This document shows positions 3,692 to 57,963 of a stretch of DNA of 64,000 bases, one piece after another. The notes under the pieces are model-generated. The model ran no database searches and was not told the origin of the DNA. It saw only the letters and a program-made list of their open reading frames with translations. The stretch comes from a virus. Position numbers and translations under genes: made by a program. Every line of letters starts with the position of its first letter. Position 1 is the stretch's first letter. The stretch lies in the IMG/VR virus record IMGVR_UViG_3300030109_001309, positions 5,276-69,275 of that record, one strand, 5' to 3'.

Positions 3692-6600
3692 TGATAGAAA
3701 TTGAAGCTATTGGTGAAGGTCCAACGATTACGTCAGTTGAGAATACTTTATCAGAACCTAATGAAAGGGATACACGGTTAGCTACATTAGCTGCTATTGC
3801 TGATGAAAGAATTAATGGAACAACTGCTCAACCATTTGCAGATTGGTTAAGAATTACACACCAACCTAATGGTGAACTTGAAGCTCGTAAAATGTTAGGA
3901 CTAAGTAAAATTAACCAAGACATAGATAACTTTCTTTTAAGTGAAGCTGATGAACCTGTAGCTACTCCACAAGAAATGTTTGATATTTTACAAGCTAAAC
4001 AACAAGTAAATGTTCAAGAAGCTTATAGAAATATTTTAGAAACTGAGACGGCTGCAACTTTAACAGATCAATCTATGTCTGATCCTGTTCGTGGTGCTGT
4101 AATTGAAGCAGAAGAATTAAGTGTTGAAGAATCCCAACAACTTTTAAGTATGGATCGTTCTGAAAATTTAACAGCAGCTTTGTTAAAGTTAAACAATCTT
4201 CAAATGAAGTATGCTAAAGAATTATTTGGTATAGGTCTTGATGTTAATTTAGCTAAACACTTAGCTATCCTTGTGCCTATGATGGATACATACGCTCAGT
4301 TTGCTAATGGTGAACGTAACATGGAAACATTAGGGGATGCATTGCGTAGAGAATCCTCAGAAATTTTTGATGGTCCTGATCCATTAGGTGCAGTAACACG
4401 TTTAGAAGAAAAATTAAATAACTCTGATTTACCTACTTTATTTAAATTAGATTTAGTAAGCACTAAATCAATAGGAGAAGTTGAAGCTAGTATACGGTCT
4501 ATTTTTGAAGTAGTTGATGCAACTGGCGCGTTAGCTATTTTAGGTAAAAGTTTATCTGCACTAACTAAAGTAGGACGTTTATCACGTCTTGCTAAAGTAG
4601 CAGACAATCCTCAAGCATCAGTTAATACTGCAAAAGAATTAGCAGAACGAGCTAAACCAGGTAGTCCAAGTCCTCTTTCTGATGACGAGTTTGAAGAACT
4701 TATTGAAGGTGCTATTACTTCTAATGGAAAAGATTTTACTGATAATACGTCTGGTAGAGTTGCGGTTGTTCTTCAAGAACAAGCTGATGAACTAGACGCT
4801 ATTAACATAATTCGTGGACAAAACTTTTTAAGTGAAGAAGAAAAACTACAAGCTATCGAAAAACTTAAAGTAGATATTAAACAAAGTTACCCTAATGTTA
4901 CCGCTATTGATGTAGAGGATACAGATGATTTTGCAACTGTAGCTTTTAAACTAGGTACAGGAGAAGACAACTTATCTTCTTATGTAAGTATGGAAGCTGC
5001 CGTTAAAGCTGCTGAACGGTTAGGTATACAACCTGGATTTTATAAAGTAGAAAAAGCAGAAGGAGTTTACCATTTAAAAGTAGTCAGAGATATTAATGAT
5101 ATTGGGCAAGATGGTAAATCATTTTTAAAAGGTTTTGATTCTCCTAATGGATTAGTAACTCCATTATTTTTAAACAAATACCTAACAGGAAATAAAATTA
5201 ATTTAAACTTTGCAGAAAGATTAGCAGATGGTGGTATTGTTGGTGTTAATGCTGCTGCATTATTAAATGAAATATTTAAAAACAGTAGTAAATTAATTAC
5301 AAAACTTAGTAAAAACGAACGAACCTCTTTCGATGCTGTTATGAGACATACGCAAAACAATAATGGTGGTAGATGGTTAAGTGCTAAACAATTTGATGAT
5401 TTTTTTAGTAGCCAGTTAGGTAGAAAAGCTACAGAAGATGAACAAATTGCGTATGGTGCAGCTATTCAATTGCATCGTGCAGATGAAGCTATTATTAACT
5501 CAGCTATTCGCAATGACTTTATTCAAAAAGGTTTTCAAGAAATTGGTATAGCTGGTGTAAGGGATAATAAAACTATTGGTAAAGTTATTCCTGCATTTGA
5601 TCGTAAAAATTTAAAAAACATTAGCATCTTTGATGGTACTACAGGTAAACATTACCCTGTAGGTACAACCTCAAAAGGTTTAGTAGAGAAACTACTTAAA
5701 GAAGATAATTTAGTTCTTGTAAAGTATTTAGATGAAGTTCCTGTAGTACAAGGAAAAGGAAGTTTAACTGAAGCAGGAGTTAAAATAGGTATTACAATTG
5801 AAGATGAGTTTGCTTCGTTAGGTCAAGAGGCTATTAAAGCTCAATATGTAATTGCTAAAAAAACAAGTGTAGGTCAAACAGCATTACGACACAGACTTCT
5901 TAAGCATTTTGATGGGCCTCACAGAGAATATAAAGACCCATATTTTATTAAACAGTCTAAAACTTTAGACGGTACATTTTTAACTACTCGTACACATTTT
6001 AATGTTGGTTCTGAAAGCCAAGCATTAAAGTATGCTAACGAATATAACATTGCATTGGATTCTTTTCTAAGAGCAGAACGAGCTACTATAGGTAATGCTG
6101 CTAATAGTGGAGAACTTCAAGCTCAAGCAACTAAAGTAATACAAGAAAATACCCATTTTAGTTCTTGGGATGAAATGAAACAAGCCGTAGACTCTGGAAA
6201 AATAGAGCGTACACCTTTTGAAGCTTGGGGTGATGGAGCAGCTAAACCATACAATGCTACAACTATAGGTAAAACATCTAAAGACTACTCACCTGATGTT
6301 ATGGATATTGATTCTGATTTTATGGGGTTATCAGAGACTACAAAAAAGTACATTAACTCTGGACAATTATATTATTCTGCACGAGGACAACATTTAAAAT
6401 CTCCAGATGGTAAGTTAGCACCAGTTTTAGACGCACGAGAAATTTTAGAAAACTCAATTAAACATATTATTCATACCAGAGCATTTGGTGAGTACAAAGC
6501 TAGGCATGTAAAACAATGGGTGCAAACATACAAAGAGTATTTAGATACAGCTAGTGAAATACGCCCTGATTGGTATCACTTTACACATGGTAAATTTCGT

Positions 6601-12962: not shown

Positions 12963-14650
12963 GTCTTAGCTCCTGTAGATGGATCGATGAAACAAGCAGC
13001 ACCTTCAATCTCATCAGGCTCAATTTTATTTAAGATGCCATACCGCTTACCGTCTAGTCTAAAGGTAGTTACTCCTTTCAGTCTACCCTTCCAAGCTTTT
13101 AAGTAGATGTCTTTAAACTCATCAAAAGACACTTGGCTACCCACGTTAATAGTCTTAGATACGGCGCTATCAATAAAAGGTTGTACAGCAATTTGCATAT
13201 CAAGATGATCGTCAACAGTGAGTTCTTCTGTGGTTTCACCTTTAACTCCATACTTGTCATACGCATAGTCACGTAGACGTACAACCTGTGGGCCAGCTTC
13301 TGTCTGTACTGTACGATCAAGTTCATGTTGAAACACCGGCTCTATACCACTACTTACATTGTCTGCTGTAAAACTAATTGTACCAGTAGGTGCAATGGAA
13401 GTCAAGTGGCTGTTACGTATTCCTTGCTGTTTAATTTTAGCTTTAAGATCATCAGGTAATCGTGCTACATAATCACCAGCAAGGTACTTATCTGCATTGA
13501 ATAGTTTAAAGGAACCCTTTTCCAAAGCTAGATCAGAACTAGCAGAGAAGGCTTCACACATAATTGTCTTTAAAACTTTACGTGTAAACCGTTTACCTAC
13601 TACAGAACCATAAGGATACCCACACATGGTTAAGCAGTTGGCTAGACCAGTAACACCTAGTCCCATACGCCGCTTAGTCTTAGCCTCAATCTCTTGTTCT
13701 TCTAAGGGGTACGATGTACGGTCAATAACATTATCCATAGCTCGAACTACGTGAGGTATATCATCTTTTAGTTGAGCAAAGTTAAACTTGTGTGTCTCTG
13801 TATTGACATACTTAACTAGATTAAATGAACCTAGCAAGCAAGCACCAAAGGGTGGTAGTGGTTGCTCACCACATGGGTTAGTAGCCTCTACCGTTTCACA
13901 GTAGTACAATGGGTTCTCGTTGTTGATACGGTCTAGGAAGAGTATGCCAGGCTCTGCCCAATCCCAATTGTTACGCATAATCTCATCCCATAAAGCACGG
14001 GCATTGATAGTACGGTAGGGTTGTCCTTCCCATGTAAGGTCAAATGATTTACTATCTCGTACACATTCCATAAACTCATCAGTTACACCAACTGATATAT
14101 TAAAGTTAGTAAGCTGGTTCTCATTACGTTTTGCTCTGATAAACTCTTCAATGTCAGGATGATCTACCCTGAGTACAGCCATCATTGCACCGCGTCTATG
14201 CCCCGCTGATACAATTGTTTCACAGACTGAATCAAAGATGCCCATAAACGAGACAGGTCCACTAGCACTAGAGTCAAGGGATACAATACGGTTCCCACGA
14301 GGACGGATACGGCTAAAGTCAAAGCCGATACCACCACCTCTACGCATAGTCTCAGCGGCTTCAGTGGCCCTTGCCATAATGCTTTGCATCGAGTCATCAA
14401 TCGTTCCTGATACGAAACAGTTGTACGCTGTGACTTCACGTGGGCTTCCCATTGCCGCTTGAACTCTACCGGCTGGCATAAATCTTTGATGTAGTAAGAT
14501 GTCTTTATACCTGAGTCGATGTCCTTCATCGTCAGACATTGCCGCCGTCTGTCTCGCACAAGCCTCACTGAACTCTTCATTTGCTAACCTATACTTCTGT
14601 GCATGTAGTGTATCACATGCTGGGTTTTGGGGTCCGTGTTGATTATCCAT
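12953..14650 (-). CDS. nrdJ: Class II (adenosylcobalamin-dependent) ribonucleotide reductase
   Basis: NCFV, RRGAMM, TNPCGEQPL, IAPTGTIS, C-terminal Cys pair; no beta-subunit gene in the window. Confidence 0.88.
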   Translation of the reverse strand: MDNQHGPQNPACDTLHAQKYRLANEEFSEACARQTAAMSDDEGHRLRYKDILLHQRFMPAGRVQAAMGSPREVTAYNCFVSGTIDDSMQSIMARATEAAETMRRGGGIGFDFSRIRPRGNRIVSLDSSASGPVSFMGIFDSVCETIVSAGHRRGAMMAVLRVDHPDIEEFIRAKRNENQLTNFNISVGVTDEFMECVRDSKSFDLTWEGQPYRTINARALWDEIMRNNWDWAEPGILFLDRINNENPLYYCETVEATNPCGEQPLPPFGACLLGSFNLVKYVNTETHKFNFAQLKDDIPHVVRAMDNVIDRTSYPLEEQEIEAKTKRRMGLGVTGLANCLTMCGYPYGSVVGKRFTRKVLKTIMCEAFSASSDLALEKGSFKLFNADKYLAGDYVARLPDDLKAKIKQQGIRNSHLTSIAPTGTISFTADNVSSGIEPVFQHELDRTVQTEAGPQVVRLRDYAYDKYGVKGETTEELTVDDHLDMQIAVQPFIDSAVSKTINVGSQVSFDEFKDIYLKAWKGRLKGVTTFRLDGKRYGILNKIEPDEIEGAACFIDPSTGAKTCE

Positions 14651-15077
14651 AAATTAAATCTCCAAGGTCAGGCTCTTGATAATTTGGGCCTTTAATAATT
14701 TTACCATCCGCACGGTATAACGGCTTACCATCATCACCAAACTTCGACATGTTAGAATTATGTACCCTATTAAAAGCGGTCCTAAGACCACCAGAAAGGG
14801 GATAGAGACTAACGACAGTCCCTGATAAAACATACTGTAAATCAGCGAGTTCTTTTAGTAAGTGCGCCCACTGCTCCTTTGTACCTGGGTTTCCTCTCAT
14901 TAATTCAAGTTCTAAAACTTCTAGAGCATCAATTACCTCAGACGTTTCTTCAGAAATTAAACTTTTACGTAGTTGAAGTAATGAAACACGAGGCTGGCTA
15001 CTAATATCTAGACCCATAGCATGGTGAAATCTAGAAACCAATTGCTCTCTAGTGGTAGGTTTTATCGACATCTTCAC
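14643..15077 (-). CDS. MazG-like / PRA-PH-like nucleotide pyrophosphohydrolase
   Basis: LISEE..E, KELADLQYV, VHNSNMSK, DGKIIKGPNY motifs. Confidence 0.8.
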   Translation of the reverse strand: MKMSIKPTTREQLVSRFHHAMGLDISSQPRVSLLQLRKSLISEETSEVIDALEVLELELMRGNPGTKEQWAHLLKELADLQYVLSGTVVSLYPLSGGLRTAFNRVHNSNMSKFGDDGKPLYRADGKIIKGPNYQEPDLGDLIYG

Positions 15078-15264
15078 CTAATCCTTTCCGTATTGATTCA
15101 AGTGTAACATTAGCTGATCTAATTAGTATCTCACGTAGTTCATCTCGTTGAATTTTATCAGCTTCTTTCATTAGACGTATAACAAGGTCGAGTCTATTAA
15201 CCATTATGTCTGGATTAAAAAACATAACGTCCTCTTCTTCATCGTCATCCTTGTTGAATAGCAT
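15049..15264 (-). CDS. Acidic hypothetical protein
   Basis: FNPDIMVNRLDLVIRL shared with 56623..56901. Confidence 0.65.
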   Translation of the reverse strand: MLFNKDDDEEEDVMFFNPDIMVNRLDLVIRLMKEADKIQRDELREILIRSANVTLESIRKGLGEDVDKTYH

Positions 15265-15379
15265 ATTGCTTTTCCTTTTTACGATTGTATTTCTTTTTAG
15301 ATTTTACAATACGCATACGATACTTAGGAGTACGTAGATCACGAGCCACTCCATTGCGTGTACTCCTCTTCTGTTTCAT
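15245..15379 (-). CDS. Small basic ArfA-like protein, 44 aa (genome A)
   Basis: Manual translation MKQKRSTRNGVARDLRTPKYRMRIVKSKKKYNRKKEKQYAIQQG; syntenic homologue at 56828..57007. Confidence 0.65.
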   Translation of the reverse strand: MKQKRSTRNGVARDLRTPKYRMRIVKSKKKYNRKKEKQYAIQQG

Positions 15380-15587
15380 TGTAGGAATCCTCTAGGTTTA
15401 TACCTAGATCAGATAAAATTTCATCGAATTTGTATAGACTATTATACACCTCTTCAAAGTAATTGTCAAGAATATCTTCTGCTGATATTTCTAATCTCTC
15501 GATAATCTCTGCACCTGTATATCTGTCAGCGATGAGCAACTTTAGCTCGTTTGGTTCGACCCTTAGTCCGTCTACCATGTGTGCCAT
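15339..15587 (-). CDS. Acidic hypothetical protein
   Basis: DRYTGAEIIERLEISAEDI shared with 56946..57191. Confidence 0.65.
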   Translation of the reverse strand: MAHMVDGLRVEPNELKLLIADRYTGAEIIERLEISAEDILDNYFEEVYNSLYKFDEILSDLGINLEDSYNETEEEYTQWSGS

Positions 15588-16329
15588 ACTCCTTTCTTAA
15601 TGCATTAATAGAGACAAACTGAGGGTCATACGTACCGTCCTCAACATTTCTCTTAATGATAACCCCTGACCACCAGAGGTCTTCTGATTGTGGGTTGTTC
15701 CACCCACTGGCATAGTCTAGGTAGCACCCCCCAACCATGCTCATAATTCTTTTACCAGCAGCGTTAGTATCACTAGCAAAGTCTAACGTGTGAGTATGCC
15801 CGGCAGTACAGGACATGTGTTGTTTATTAAGAAGAGACTTAGCAGGATTTTCTCCACCAATAGGCCGGCCCATAACACCACTTGTAAAGTAGTGGCTGTA
15901 AGCTATGTTGTCTACAATAGCAGGAGATAGAAACTTATGTACCTCCCAACCATACTCTTTAAATTGTAAGTCTTGCATACCAATGGTGCCGTCTAAGATA
16001 GCGTCAGAACTAATAGCTCTATTGATACGTTCTTCATGGTTACCTAGGGTAAGTACGTATCGTGCTAGTTTCTTCTTAGCCTTTTTAATAGGTGTAAACA
16101 TACGTTCTTGTGCATCAATAGTTACGTTAACATCTTGTTTGTATCGACGCCCTTCAAAACCTTTAGTACCTTTATCGTATGTACACAGGCTAGGCATATC
16201 AGCCATGTCACCTAGATTAACAACAACATCAGGGCGTAGGTCAACAATCAACTTACCAAGCCACTCAAACCTATCGTTGTTGTTTTCTGGGTGAGCATGT
16301 TGATCTGGTATAACTAAATGGATAGCCAT
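15526..16329 (-). CDS. Calcineurin-like metallophosphoesterase
   Basis: DQH, GDMAD, GNHE, GHTH motifs. Confidence 0.85.
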   Translation of the reverse strand: MAIHLVIPDQHAHPENNNDRFEWLGKLIVDLRPDVVVNLGDMADMPSLCTYDKGTKGFEGRRYKQDVNVTIDAQERMFTPIKKAKKKLARYVLTLGNHEERINRAISSDAILDGTIGMQDLQFKEYGWEVHKFLSPAIVDNIAYSHYFTSGVMGRPIGGENPAKSLLNKQHMSCTAGHTHTLDFASDTNAAGKRIMSMVGGCYLDYASGWNNPQSEDLWWSGVIIKRNVEDGTYDPQFVSINALRKEYGTHGRRTKGRTKRAKVAHR

Positions 16330-54538: not shown

Positions 54539-56220
54539 TCCTTTTGTCCTGTCTCTGGGTCAATAAAACAAGCTGTACCATCTTCAACTGTGTCTTCTAT
54601 ATCTTCTACCTTATTAAGAATACCATAGCGTTTACCAGCTAATCTAAACGTAGTAACTCCTTTCAGTTTAAATTTCCAAGCATTAAAGTAAACATCTTTA
54701 AACTCTTCAAATGAAACAGCATCTCCTACGTTAATAGTTTTAGACACCGCACTATCTACCCAAGGTTGAACAGCGTGTTGCATTGAAAGATGGTCTTGTA
54801 CTGATAGGGTATCTGTCGTATCAGATTTTATATTGTGATAATTGTATACGTAATCTTTTAGTTGCACTACTTGTGGTCCTAACTCTGTCTGTACAGTACG
54901 GTTAATTTCGTAAGCAAATACAGGCTCAATACCTGATGATACATTGTCTGCTGTAAAACTAATTGTACCTGTTGGTGCAATAGAAGTCAAGTGACTATTT
55001 CGCATACCTTGTTTAGATATTTTTACTTGTAAATCTTCAGGGAATTTCTTAATAAAATTTCCTATTGGGTACTTACCTTTATCGTACAAAGGAAAGCAAC
55101 CTTTTTCAAGTGCAAGATCAGAGCTTGATTCATAAGCAACTAAGCAAAGAGTTTTCATAATTTTACGTGTAAACCTTGGCCCTTCTCTATACTTGTAGCC
55201 ACATAAAGTAATAGCATTAGCTAATCCTGTAATACCTAAACCCATTCTGCGTTTTGCTTGCGCTTCTTCTTTTTGAGCAAGAAGAGGATAATTAGTTCGA
55301 TCAATAACATTGTCCATTGCCCTCACTACATGGGGAATATCATCTTTAAAGAAATCAAAGTTAAACTTTTTATCTTTAACATATTTAACTAAATTAAAAC
55401 TGCCTAACAAACAAGCACCGTAAGGTGGAAGTGGTTGTTCACCACAAGGGTTAGTAGCTTCAATAGTTTCACAATAGTACAAAGGATTATCGTTGTTAAT
55501 CTGGTCTAAAAACAACACACCTGGCTCTGCCCAATCCCATGTGCTACGCATAATCTCATCCCACAAAGCAGAAGCATCTATTTGTTTATAAACCTTACCC
55601 TCAAACTTTAAACTAAAGGGTTTGTTATTGTGAACACACGACATAAATTCATCTGTTACACCAACAGAAATATTAAAATTAGTAAGCTCATTTTCATTAC
55701 GTTTAGCTCTGATAAATTCTTCAATGTCAGGGTGGTCTACCCTAAGTACACCCATCATTGCTCCTCTTCTGTGTCCTGCGGAAACGATTGTTCTACACAC
55801 TGCATCAAAAATTCGCATAAAAGAAACGGGACCAGAAGCACTACTATCAAGACTGACAATGCGATCACCGGCAGGACGGATACGGCTAAAATCGTAACCG
55901 ATACCACCGCCACGCCGCATTGTTTCAGCAGCTTCTTTGGCCCTGTCCATGATACTGTCCATAGAGTCTTCGACAATTCCACTGACAAAGCAATTGTACG
56001 CCGTAACATTTCTAGGGCTTCCCATCGCTGATTGAACTCTACCGGCTGGCATAAATCGTTGTTCTTGGAAAATGGATTTAAGCTTTTGACGATGCGCTTC
56101 GTTGTCAGCCATTGCTGCTGCATTACGAGACACACCTTCTTCAAAAGATTCATTGGGTAATCTGTATTTAGTTGCATGAAGTTCCTCACATTCTTTAACT
56201 TGGGGTCCGTAGTTACTCAT
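54529..56220 (-). CDS. nrdJ: Class II ribonucleotide reductase (genome B)
   Basis: Same motifs as 12953..14650. Confidence 0.88.
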   Translation of the reverse strand: MSNYGPQVKECEELHATKYRLPNESFEEGVSRNAAAMADNEAHRQKLKSIFQEQRFMPAGRVQSAMGSPRNVTAYNCFVSGIVEDSMDSIMDRAKEAAETMRRGGGIGYDFSRIRPAGDRIVSLDSSASGPVSFMRIFDAVCRTIVSAGHRRGAMMGVLRVDHPDIEEFIRAKRNENELTNFNISVGVTDEFMSCVHNNKPFSLKFEGKVYKQIDASALWDEIMRSTWDWAEPGVLFLDQINNDNPLYYCETIEATNPCGEQPLPPYGACLLGSFNLVKYVKDKKFNFDFFKDDIPHVVRAMDNVIDRTNYPLLAQKEEAQAKRRMGLGITGLANAITLCGYKYREGPRFTRKIMKTLCLVAYESSSDLALEKGCFPLYDKGKYPIGNFIKKFPEDLQVKISKQGMRNSHLTSIAPTGTISFTADNVSSGIEPVFAYEINRTVQTELGPQVVQLKDYVYNYHNIKSDTTDTLSVQDHLSMQHAVQPWVDSAVSKTINVGDAVSFEEFKDVYFNAWKFKLKGVTTFRLAGKRYGILNKVEDIEDTVEDGTACFIDPETGQKECG

Positions 56221-56651
56221 TGAAACAAATCTCCTAGTGTTGGTTCTTTATAATTATTACTTTTCTTAACCTTCCCATACTCATTATACACAGGATTGCC
56301 ATTATCGTCAAGCTTAGATAAATTGCTTGCGTGTACTCTGTTAAAAGCAACATCAAAATCTACATTATATAATTCATTTAAAGCTACAAGTGTACCACTT
56401 AATACATATTGTAAGTCACATAACTCTTTTAGTAAATTTTCCCACAATTTACTAGGTACTTTTTTACCATAATGAACTTCAAGAATTATATCTTGTAAGG
56501 CTTCTTTAACCTCTAAAGCTTCTTCTGCTATTAGTTTTTGACGTAACTCTAATAGACTTACTCTTGGTTGTGAATTTATATCAAGCAAAAAAGCATTGTG
56601 AAACTCTTGTACTTTCATTTCTCTAGTGCGGTATTGGGGATACATCGGCAT
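56217..56651 (-). CDS. MazG-like nucleotide pyrophosphohydrolase (genome B)
   Basis: KELCDLQYV, VHASNLSK. Confidence 0.8.
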   Translation of the reverse strand: MPMYPQYRTREMKVQEFHNAFLLDINSQPRVSLLELRQKLIAEEALEVKEALQDIILEVHYGKKVPSKLWENLLKELCDLQYVLSGTLVALNELYNVDFDVAFNRVHASNLSKLDDNGNPVYNEYGKVKKSNNYKEPTLGDLFQ

Positions 56652-56901
56652 CTTCTTCCTCTCTATTCATACTTTTCATGGTTAATTTAATACAGTCATA
56701 TAGCACATTTTTACTTACTTCATCTTCTGATAATTCCATTTCTCTTGTTAATCTAAGAACTAAATTCATACGATTAACTAAAGGATCAGGATTATAAAAT
56801 AATTCAAAGTTTGTGTATTCTTCTTCGTTAGTCTGTGGTTTCTTTTGAAAAAACAAAACGATCCTTTCCTTTCCTACTATAATCTTTTTTGTTTCGTACA
56901 A
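56623..56901 (-). CDS. Acidic hypothetical protein (start uncertain)
   Basis: Homologue of 15049..15264. Confidence 0.55.
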   Translation of the reverse strand: MYETKKIIVGKERIVLFFQKKPQTNEEEYTNFELFYNPDPLVNRMNLVLRLTREMELSEDEVSKNVLYDCIKLTMKSMNREEEDADVSPIPH

Positions 56902-57007
56902 TCTTTTGTTGGTATAAAGGATTACGCAAAGCTAAAGCAAAAACATTACGTTTCTTCTTCAATTGTTTCTGTAATCCCGGTAAAGTTTTTTTCTCTTTCA
57001 TCTTCAT
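56828..57007 (-). CDS. Small basic ArfA-like protein, 59 aa (genome B)
   Basis: Manual translation ...KRNVFALALRNPLYQQKIVRNKKDYSRKGKDRF... Confidence 0.65.
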   Translation of the reverse strand: MKMKEKKTLPGLQKQLKKKRNVFALALRNPLYQQKIVRNKKDYSRKGKDRFVFSKETTD

Positions 57008-57191
57008 AATCCGTAAAAAAGAAACCTGTGTCTAAATTTATTAATTCAAAGTTAGATATGTTTTCTTTGATAAGACACTTGTATGTATCATAAATATCTT
57101 CAGAAGACAAGTTTAAAATTTCTACAATTTCTTCTGCTGTGTACCTATCACAAATAGCATACTTAACTTCTTCCTCATCATATTGAAGCAT
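56946..57191 (-). CDS. Acidic hypothetical protein
   Basis: Homologue of 15339..15587. Confidence 0.65.
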   Translation of the reverse strand: MLQYDEEEVKYAICDRYTAEEIVEILNLSSEDIYDTYKCLIKENISNFELINLDTGFFFTDYEDEREKNFTGITETIEEET

Positions 57192-57963
57192 AACTATAGT
57201 CCTTTATTAAGCTAGATAGTCTAATAAAGGTAGGATCAAAGTCTCCATTATGGACGTTTCTTTTGTGAACTATACCTCTCCAATGATTATTTCCTTGTGG
57301 ACCTTTATATTTTTCATCATCTAAATAACTAGCTCCACAAGTTATAGACCACATCATACCTTTATCATCAGCCCAACCAGTACTAATATCTAAACAAGGT
57401 CTATGTCCTTGTGTTACTGATACTTTTGTTTGATCTAAAGAAACTTTACTAGATGCTTTAGGGTTAGGGCTGTTCCTATTCTGGACATAGTGTACATATT
57501 CAACACCGTCTATAATTACAGGGGTTAAAAAATCGTATACATTAAATCCAAAATCTTTTAATTTAAAATTATCGTAGCTCAATGTCCCTTCTAAAATAGG
57601 GTTAGCATTAACGTGCCGCATAATTCTTTCTTCATGGTTGCCAATTGTAAAATGCATTTCAGGTTTATATTTTTTCTTTTTGTGTTTAACGCAATGGTTA
57701 TTATGTTTTTCTATAGGAGCTAACAATAAATGTAAAGCATTAATGCCAGAAGTAATGTCATCTTTATACCTTGCCCCTTCTGCATTTTTAGTACCTCTAT
57801 CATAGCTACTAAGACTATGCATATCAAACCAATCTCCTATGCATACTATAACTTCAGGTTGATATTTAATAATATACTCACCAATAGCAGGAAGGTGAGT
57901 AGTATTAGAATTAGGTTTAATTTGCATATCGAATATTACTAAGTGATCTCTCATCGGAACCAT
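57178..57963 (-). CDS. Metallophosphoesterase (genome B)
   Basis: GDWFD, GNHE, GH motifs. Confidence 0.82.
   Translation of the reverse strand: MVPMRDHLVIFDMQIKPNSNTTHLPAIGEYIIKYQPEVIVCIGDWFDMHSLSSYDRGTKNAEGARYKDDITSGINALHLLLAPIEKHNNHCVKHKKKKYKPEMHFTIGNHEERIMRHVNANPILEGTLSYDNFKLKDFGFNVYDFLTPVIIDGVEYVHYVQNRNSPNPKASSKVSLDQTKVSVTQGHRPCLDISTGWADDKGMMWSITCGASYLDDEKYKGPQGNNHWRGIVHKRNVHNGDFDPTFIRLSSLIKDYSYASI

Follow-up and report, generated by a model that had tools for sequence, protein, structure and literature searches.

A putative remote homologue of the ribosome rescue factor ArfA encoded by micro-genes of podovirus-like genomes

ArfA and the phage micro-genes

ArfA (YhdL; PF03889) is an RF2-dependent rescue factor of E. 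coli and other beta/gamma-proteobacteria, and is represented in the PDB by entries 5MDV, 5MGP, 5U4I and 5H5U. The subject of this report is a pair of very small genes with ArfA-like products in a 64,000-nucleotide stretch of viral DNA (the window), which is part of the 69,275-base IMG/VR record IMGVR_UViG_3300030109_001309 (positions 5,276 to 69,275) and holds two related genomes, A and B. Micro-gene B (56828..57007, minus strand) specifies 59 amino acids from ATG 57007, with an ArfA-like core at residues 20–48. Micro-gene A (15245..15379, minus strand; ATG start, 44 amino acids) is its syntenic homologue in the other genome, and the two products show 39% identity with 17 invariant columns. 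The original prediction, made from the letters alone, had proposed a hidden ArfA-like micro-gene in both genomes. Both open reading frames (ORFs) exist, that of B containing the quoted NVFALALRNPLYQQKIVRNKKDYSRKGK and that of A the quoted NGVARDLRTPKYRMRIVKSKKKYNRKKEK, and the ArfA core given there agrees with the ArfA chains in the PDB and with ArfA genes. Its functional proposal, that the product may free ribosomes stalled on truncated mRNA or may be a mimic that blocks rescue by the host, stays hypothetical. The word hidden is apt only in part, since B is already a called gene in a public protein collection (P0001, 57 amino acids, from the third codon).

The micro-genes fall in the size class of ArfA, the active form of which has about 55 amino acids, and share with it the order of the elements N-x-x-x-A/L-L-x-x-P-L-F/Y, Q/R-R/K-V/I, N-K-K and Y-x-R-K-G-K. 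In the excerpted text of PMC8012679, helix 15–24 of ArfA contacts the decoding centre; this helix corresponds to V22 to L31 of B. The AlphaFold2 (AF2) model of B possesses a single helix at residues 22–26, with a predicted local distance difference test (pLDDT) score of 93 for residues 21–30, the most confident part of the model, and a mean of 77.9. The same excerpts describe F25 of ArfA as a hydrophobic contact specific to RF2. Its position is taken by Y32 in B, by a tyrosine in A, and by an aromatic residue in 136 of 140 members of the wider family described below. The segment Q27–E30 of ArfA forms a strand that adds to the RF2 sheet (PMC8012679, excerpts) and is matched, at sequence level, by Q-K-I-V in B, M-R-I-V in A and a beta-prone R-x-R-V-V in the family. 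The N-K-K that is conserved before the ArfA insert is N-K-K in B, and Y-M-R-K-G-K, the start of the basic tail, is Y-S-R-K-G-K. On this mapping the best-conserved part of the family would face RF2 and the decoding centre, and is not the basic tail only. The C-terminal tail is basic in both A and B; the KH motif, by which ArfA contacts the mRNA entry channel, is missing from both. A complex prediction using the family alignment (B as first row) and RF2_ECOLI scored 0.08 against a mark of 0.32, E. coli RF2 serving as a stand-in; this weighs neither way on binding.

Two other small basic proteins, BrfA of B. subtilis and ArfT of F. tularensis, likewise sense that the mRNA channel is empty and bring in a release factor (RF2 for BrfA, RF1/RF2 for ArfT), and are regarded as having evolved independently of ArfA (PMC8012679, excerpts). 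No sequence link between them and the micro-genes was found, the PDB searches having returned only ArfA and one S17 row.

Homology searches, family membership and selection

The signal for ArfA in the PDB grew with the depth of the query. B alone, searched against all PDB sequences using phmmer, gave seven rows, six of them ArfA (E 0.06–0.14) and one S17 (E 0.25). With a profile of seven syntenic sequences all six matches were to ArfA (E 0.002–0.006), and with a profile of 140 family sequences, run against the whole PDB, again six of six (E 3.4e-5 to 9.5e-5, low bias); no other family was found with the profiles. In hhalign comparisons the family alignment matched E. coli ArfA alone at 83.5%, 16 enterobacterial ArfAs at 89.2%, and 30 diverse ArfAs at 72.1% (E 3.4e-5) when untrimmed and at 91.0% (E 1.1e-6, score 35.4) when trimmed to well-occupied columns. 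The 30 diverse sequences were taken from 301 sampled Pseudomonadota genomes, a contig scan with the enterobacterial ArfAs having given close relatives only.

The original prediction had singled out Lys/Arg bias as a possible source of the resemblance. Two hundred column-shuffled ArfA alignments gave a mean score of 8.9 (standard deviation 1.9) and a maximum of 15.9, and the reversed alignment 11.4; since the real score was 35.4, Lys/Arg bias does not explain the match, and the similarity survived this control as well as the PDB searches, in which all six profile matches were ArfA. In the reverse direction, a hidden Markov model (HMM) of the 30 ArfAs placed the copy in related locus L010, B (E 0.016), the copies in L011 and L013, and A at ranks 1–5 among 1999 six-frame ORFs; the copy in L008 lay far down (E 34). 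A Foldseek search of the PDB with the AF2 model of B gave no significant match, and its three rows (E 3.1–6.7), all ArfA chains, are not independent evidence because Foldseek scores sequence as well as shape. As judged from sequence, the likeness to ArfA is order-specific and goes beyond composition, and the micro-gene family is very probably a remote homologue of ArfA.

On profile evidence, A and B belong to the DUF7230 / phrog_20887 family, a very large group of small basic proteins. The match to phrog_20887 has E-values of 9.6e-4 for B and 3.4e-5 for A at the protein level, and of 3.8e-5 (B) and 6.9e-6 (A) in six-frame DNA. Among 1.84 billion cluster representatives (50% identity), 941 clusters matched the profile of seven syntenic homologues at E <= 1e-3; the 150 listed are 34–135 amino acids in length, save one unrelated 805-amino-acid repeat protein. 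The family consensus, R-N-P-I-A-K-D-L-R-T-P-K-Y-R-x-R-V-V-x-S-K-K-x-Y-N-R-K, is closely fitted by A. Among 140 members, 55 match Pfam DUF7230 (PF23876) and eight match Pfam ArfA at E <= 0.01. A profile of 137 natural members, from which B, A and the copy in L010 had been left out, gave B 45.3 bits and A 74.1 bits among 1999 six-frame ORFs, which places their membership beyond chance. The language-model neighbours of B in the ESM Atlas are DUF7230 clusters (score 0.92–0.93); when DUF7230 was left out, a partly ArfA-labelled viral cluster ranked fifth (score 0.84), which is a lead rather than evidence. An NCBIfam search of family members gave nothing relevant, and public sources label them only as hypothetical protein.

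The family is mainly viral or metagenomic. It was found in 37 further viral contigs of 4–165 kb, and DUF7230 occurred in one of 301 sampled Pseudomonadota genomes; in a sample of equal size from that phylum, ArfA occurred in 30. Within the family B is a divergent member: at the position of its P-L-Y, 116 of 140 members have P-K-Y/F and 13 have P-L-Y/F, and its Y-x-R-K-G-K occurs in five of 140. By these two features B is of the ArfA-nearest subtype. The Pfam DUF7230 model matched two of the seven syntenic homologues at E <= 1 (best E 0.028).

Megablast of both regions against cultured phages gave no match, and tblastn with B gave five weak rows only (E 0.4–6); a word-indexed protein search with B recovered B itself only. 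Using A, tblastn returned one row, Roseobacter phage CRP-13 (E 0.01). Here a 41-amino-acid, GTG-started ORF (L126:2507-2632, plus strand) carries the near-consensus DUF7230 core K-R-N-P-I-A-R-D-L-R-Q-P-K-Y-R-L-R-V-V, out of frame within the acidic N-terminal part of the annotated 313-amino-acid gp52. Either the annotation has missed an overlapping gene here, or the ORF points to an error in the gene model.

Proteins that bridge the two Pfam families came from a tblastn search of cultured phages with E. coli ArfA. This gave 12 records, two of which are already labelled ArfA in GenBank, and three were fetched and aligned. The protein of Pseudoalteromonas phage J2-1 (ATN93434.1; L166:133-285, 51 amino acids), annotated as ArfA, matches Pfam ArfA with 41.3 bits and DUF7230 with 28.6 bits over overlapping residues; it lacks the GKG insert yet passes the ArfA model. 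Since it passes both gathering cut-offs, the two Pfam families overlap. The g10 protein of Citromicrobium phage vB_CbaS-RXM (USM11455.1), also annotated as ArfA and mentioned in passing as such in the excerpted text of PMC8953757, scores 29.6 bits on Pfam ArfA and joins a DUF7230-like front, Q-R-N-P-L-A, to G-R-G-S-Y. In Roseobacter phage CRP-212 a segment of gp38 (L167; gp38 spans 3.6 kb) scores 33.5 bits on Pfam ArfA, being DUF7230-like as far as R-Y-R-Q-R and continuing with K-K-G-K-G-S-Y and K-H. These intermediates form a continuum between the two families. Like A and B, the J2-1 and RXM proteins are short, phage-borne, ArfA-like and equipped with their own stop codon. J2-1 also resembles A and B in having no GKG insert, whereas RXM keeps a GRGSY insert; and both pass the Pfam ArfA cut-off (41.3 and 29.6 bits), which B and A do not.

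An ArfA-like stretch in Salmonella phage Arash (OQ632216.1, 57961-58074; H35) shares 63% of 38 residues with E. coli ArfA (E 2e-8). The feature that covers it is annotated as ribosomal protein L2, probably a misannotation.

The micro-ORFs were also examined for signs of selection, in ten related viral loci (L004–L013) retrieved through the downstream MazG neighbour. A homologous micro-ORF occupies the slot in six of these (L008–L013; five distinct sequences) and is absent from four (L004–L007), so the micro-gene behaves as a discrete accessory cassette that has been inserted or lost. At L004:249-763 and L005:1373-1887 the two acidic genes that otherwise flank the micro-ORF adjoin directly, stop and start sharing a base-triplet region. 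Both ends of the micro-ORF overlap its neighbours, and the conserved core lies within 24 codons free of any other long ORF. Over these 24 codons the nonsynonymous (dN) and synonymous (dS) rates were 0.054 and 1.02 for A versus L013, 0.054 and 0.35 for A versus L011, and 0.11 and 2.0 for L011 versus L013; dN/dS was ~0.05–0.23 in the four pairs with usable dS. The frame is thus under purifying selection in the A clade. For the B lineage the further evidence is weak: variant DNA contigs from three other runs span the B ORF with substitutions and 0 gaps, and a search for sequencing runs listed none of RNA. A is preceded by a Shine-Dalgarno sequence, GAGGA, 8 nt before its ATG. B has three possible starts, namely ATG 57007, ATG 57001 (used by the public call P0001) and TTG 56962, the last giving a 44-amino-acid product built like A. 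Conservation suggests that the micro-ORFs are translated. They are almost certainly real genes, and are selected, accessory genes of their phages.

Candidate function and competing explanations

In the mechanism that we propose, the peptide would be produced during infection from an operon of the replication module. On a ribosome that has run to the 3' end of a truncated mRNA and stalled, the peptide would, like ArfA, place its short helix and basic tail at the decoding centre and in the vacant mRNA channel. A class I release factor would be brought in by the conserved P-x-Y/F-R-x-R-V-V segment, so that the nascent chain leaves untagged and the ribosome is recycled. With its own stop codon and with no internal hairpin or terminator, the gene would escape repression by transfer-messenger RNA (tmRNA). 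By analogy with ArfA the peptide probably binds ribosomes; that it rescues them through a release factor is, on the same analogy, close to an even call. Taken as a whole, with function included, the best explanation is a real, ArfA-homologous phage gene that rescues ribosomes by way of a release factor, a reading we put forward tentatively, as having just under an even chance of being correct.

The benefit to the phage would lie in conditions that load the rescue capacity of the host, such as host mRNA decay, processed phage transcripts and mRNA-cutting defence. Host ArfA rises during phage infection of cells carrying DRT2, according to the excerpted text of PMC11100668. A broader proposal, which is possible and which we hold with distinctly less confidence, is that the ArfA superfamily has a phage branch in DUF7230, such that hundreds of phage lineages carry an always-on, stop-codon-bearing rescue factor that recruits the host release factor. 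If so, the carriers would include small marine podoviruses whose probable hosts have no ArfA, ribosomes would be recycled and phage proteins would escape tmRNA tagging while mRNA decays or is cut, and B, with P-L-Y and Y-x-R-K-G-K, would stand close to the point at which ArfA and DUF7230 diverged.

Several observations weigh against a rescue function of the ArfA kind. The first concern family thresholds. B alone scored 14.6 bits (E 0.022) against Pfam ArfA, the cut-off of which is 25.5 bits, and A gave no Pfam ArfA match at E <= 10; the cut-off was reached by none of the seven syntenic homologues (best L010, 19.5 bits). In six-frame DNA B scored 13.6 bits, which means little alone because matches at E <= 10 were found in 10 of 14 control genomes. 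The description ArfA-like is therefore sound as remote homology, on the profiles, the shuffles and the bridging proteins, and does not extend to membership of the ArfA family by Pfam threshold. The DUF7230 cut-off (27 bits) is likewise unmet, B scoring 7.5 bits (E 6.1) and A not being listed.

The second group concerns elements of ArfA that the phage peptides lack. The K-G-K-G-S insert between N-K-K and Y-x-R-K is present in 30 of 30 sampled ArfAs and in 0 of 140 family members; it is absent from B and A, and the original prediction was right in giving the lack of GKG as a difference. A KH motif at the ArfA spacing occurs in only 14 of the 140, and neither in B, which has K-D, nor in A. In ArfA the N-terminal 12 residues become ordered against the switch loop of RF2 when RF2 opens (PMC8012679, excerpts), and this segment has no counterpart in the family. 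The control of arfA is lacking too. According to the same excerpts arfA and brfA are expressed from non-stop mRNAs, and tmRNA keeps their level low; unlike arfA, each micro-ORF ends in a stop codon of its own and runs into the gene that follows. A search of the gene strand in and around the two micro-ORFs gave 0 terminator-like sites, no hairpin was found inside either ORF, and the RNA folds are unremarkable (z -1.2 in B; z -2.4 in A, where a hairpin lies after the stop codon). It follows from the stop codon and the lack of an internal hairpin or terminator that tmRNA would not keep the micro-gene off, and from the lack of arfA-style control that the phage version would be made whenever its operon is expressed.

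Other points of this kind concern the sequence and its setting. B has no clear Shine-Dalgarno sequence of its own. The codons of its R-K-G-K are AGGAAAGGAAAG, and lie in a purine run, AGGAAAGGAAAGGA (56856-56880, minus strand), that is Shine-Dalgarno-like and placed just upstream of the downstream acidic gene; in A the K-K-E-K codons AAAAAGGAAAAG (15264-15285, minus strand) form the Shine-Dalgarno-like site of the corresponding gene. As RKGK in B and KKEK in A thus double as Shine-Dalgarno sequences, a second constraint acts on the tail. The nearest phages have alphaproteobacterial hosts, which lie outside the reported range of ArfA (beta/gamma-proteobacteria), and ArfA/RF2 pairs show low cross-species compatibility (PMC8012679, excerpts). 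Finally, the motif is embedded in proteins of at least 980 amino acids (L136, L138 and L139; match ~1501-1596) and in CRP-212 gp38, consistent with a more generic module for binding ribosomes or RNA. The embedded ArfA/DUF7230 core of such large phage proteins may be a ribosome-targeting module delivered in a virion or ejected protein.

The strongest competing explanation, though an unlikely one, is that the peptide binds ribosomes without rescuing them and plugs the mRNA channel or the A site as an inhibitor or shut-off factor, thereby competing with tmRNA-SmpB, a host rescue factor or host translation. Such a plug would keep the ArfA-like helix and basic tail while dispensing with the N-terminal segment needed for RF2 activation and with the KGKGS linker, as is seen here, and the A18T variant of ArfA separates binding and RF2 recruitment from activation (PMC8012679, excerpts). 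The N-termini of the family vary from 1 to 41 residues, and 30 of 133 members start only 1–3 residues before the conserved core; but very short N-termini are also found among the ArfAs of some lineages (L117–L125) that pass the Pfam model. A basic tail would suffice for a plug, yet it is in the tail beyond Y-x-R-K that the family varies most (4–53 residues), and the best-conserved segment is the one that touches RF2 in ArfA, namely the aromatic residue (136/140) followed by R-x-R-V-V. This distribution of conservation, with its peak at the RF2-facing segment, argues for recruitment rather than mere plugging.

Less probable still is a generic small basic nucleic-acid binder, acting on RNA or DNA or neutralising charge, which would have come to resemble ArfA by convergence on a short basic motif. 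The aligned region covers 35–40 columns only, the HH probabilities of 72–91% are not conclusive, and the gene has a very acidic ORF on either side and belongs to a module for nucleotide metabolism and replication; the window holds no tRNA, tmRNA or Rfam family, and none of the neighbours is ribosome-related. Composition is nevertheless excluded as the cause, none of the 200 column shuffles having reached the real score; ArfA is the only PDB family found at every profile depth, and among the natural intermediates one passes both Pfam models and others combine features of the two. That the micro-ORF is not a gene at all, and the basic frame a by-product of purine-rich DNA coding acidic proteins in another frame, is very improbable and close to refuted: both its ends do overlap acidic ORFs, GAA/AAG/AGA frame relations can yield basic ORFs opposite acidic ones, and the plus strand over B also holds ORFs of 54 and 48 amino acids, but the core lies in 24 codons without another long ORF at a dN/dS of ~0.05, the 941 family clusters occur in many different contexts, and the acidic genes abut without the micro-gene in relatives, which marks it as a separate cassette.

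To return to the ArfA-related reading, the find appears to be an ArfA-superfamily mini-protein without the KGKGS linker or tmRNA-linked control, carried by small marine podoviruses. No paper containing the term DUF7230, no link between DUF7230 and ArfA and no experimental work on any phage ArfA-like protein was found in the literature searched. If the family acts like ArfA, ribosome rescue would be a widespread phage-encoded function, and there would be hundreds of natural variants of a release-factor recruiter of 40–60 amino acids that does without the KGKGS linker and tmRNA control. They would also give a handle on the little-studied question of how phages keep ribosomes free during mRNA degradation or cutting by defence nucleases. 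The micro-peptides are short enough for synthesis and for assay on non-stop complexes.

Genome arrangement, expression signals and neighbouring genes

The window contains two diverged, collinear, podovirus-like genomes arranged head to tail with an offset of ~41.9 kb, A occupying ~1-26700 and B ~27471-64000, so that the reference to both genomes in the original prediction was fair. Conserved genes of A and B show 63–89% nucleotide identity; the micro-gene stretch is too diverged for a match at the DNA level. The record does not look like one genome of 69 kb; two related podoviruses of ~42 kb seem to have been joined in it, as a chimera or a concatenate of the assembly. It covers 69,275 bases and was rated 100% complete by CheckV despite this two-genome appearance.

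A scan of the 43 larger ORFs showed no RNA polymerase, and the DNA polymerase is nearest, at 39% identity, to those of SIO1-like roseophages (Roseobacter) and Pelagibacter phages. These two observations fit transcription by the host polymerase, and a marine, possibly alphaproteobacterial host. Searches of the window for tRNA, tmRNA and Rfam families found none.

A sigma-70-type promoter (TTGACA, 17 nt, TATAAT; 12/12 match) is located at 15441..15469 on the minus strand, ~60 nt upstream of micro-gene A and inside the upstream acidic ORF. Among the seven loci compared its hexamers are unchanged in five (A, L011, L012, L013 and the more distant L008), the spacer varying, and the promoter is missing in B and L010. 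The promoter reading is suggestive only, since the hexamers also encode the conserved residues L-D-N and V-Y-N.

The claim that the two micro-ORFs share a locus was borne out: both sit in one syntenic slot with all genes on the minus strand, the order in both genomes being phosphoesterase, acidic ORF, micro-ORF, acidic ORF, MazG-like protein and ribonucleotide reductase (RNR). The upstream acidic ORF of B (56946..57191, minus strand; 81 amino acids) overlaps the start of micro-gene B with its last 62 nt, in another frame, and matched no family at a meaningful E-value in Pfam and PHROGs searches. Its counterpart in A (15339..15587, minus strand; 82 amino acids) has a 41-nt overlap with the start of micro-gene A. 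The downstream acidic ORF of B (56623..56856, minus strand) is listed from TTG 56901; comparison with the MLFNK N-terminus in A makes TTG 56856 the likelier start. In A the downstream acidic ORF (15049..15264, minus strand; 71 amino acids) overlaps the end of the micro-gene by 20 nt.

The MazG-like nucleotide pyrophosphohydrolase of B (56217..56651, minus strand; 144 amino acids) matches Pfam PRA-PH (E 2.5e-9) and is 53% identical to the A copy at 14643-15077, which matches phrog_671. On the other side of the slot, the 261-amino-acid metallo-phosphoesterase of B (57178..57963, minus strand) matches phrog_221 (E 7.6e-44), and the A copy lies at 15526-16329.

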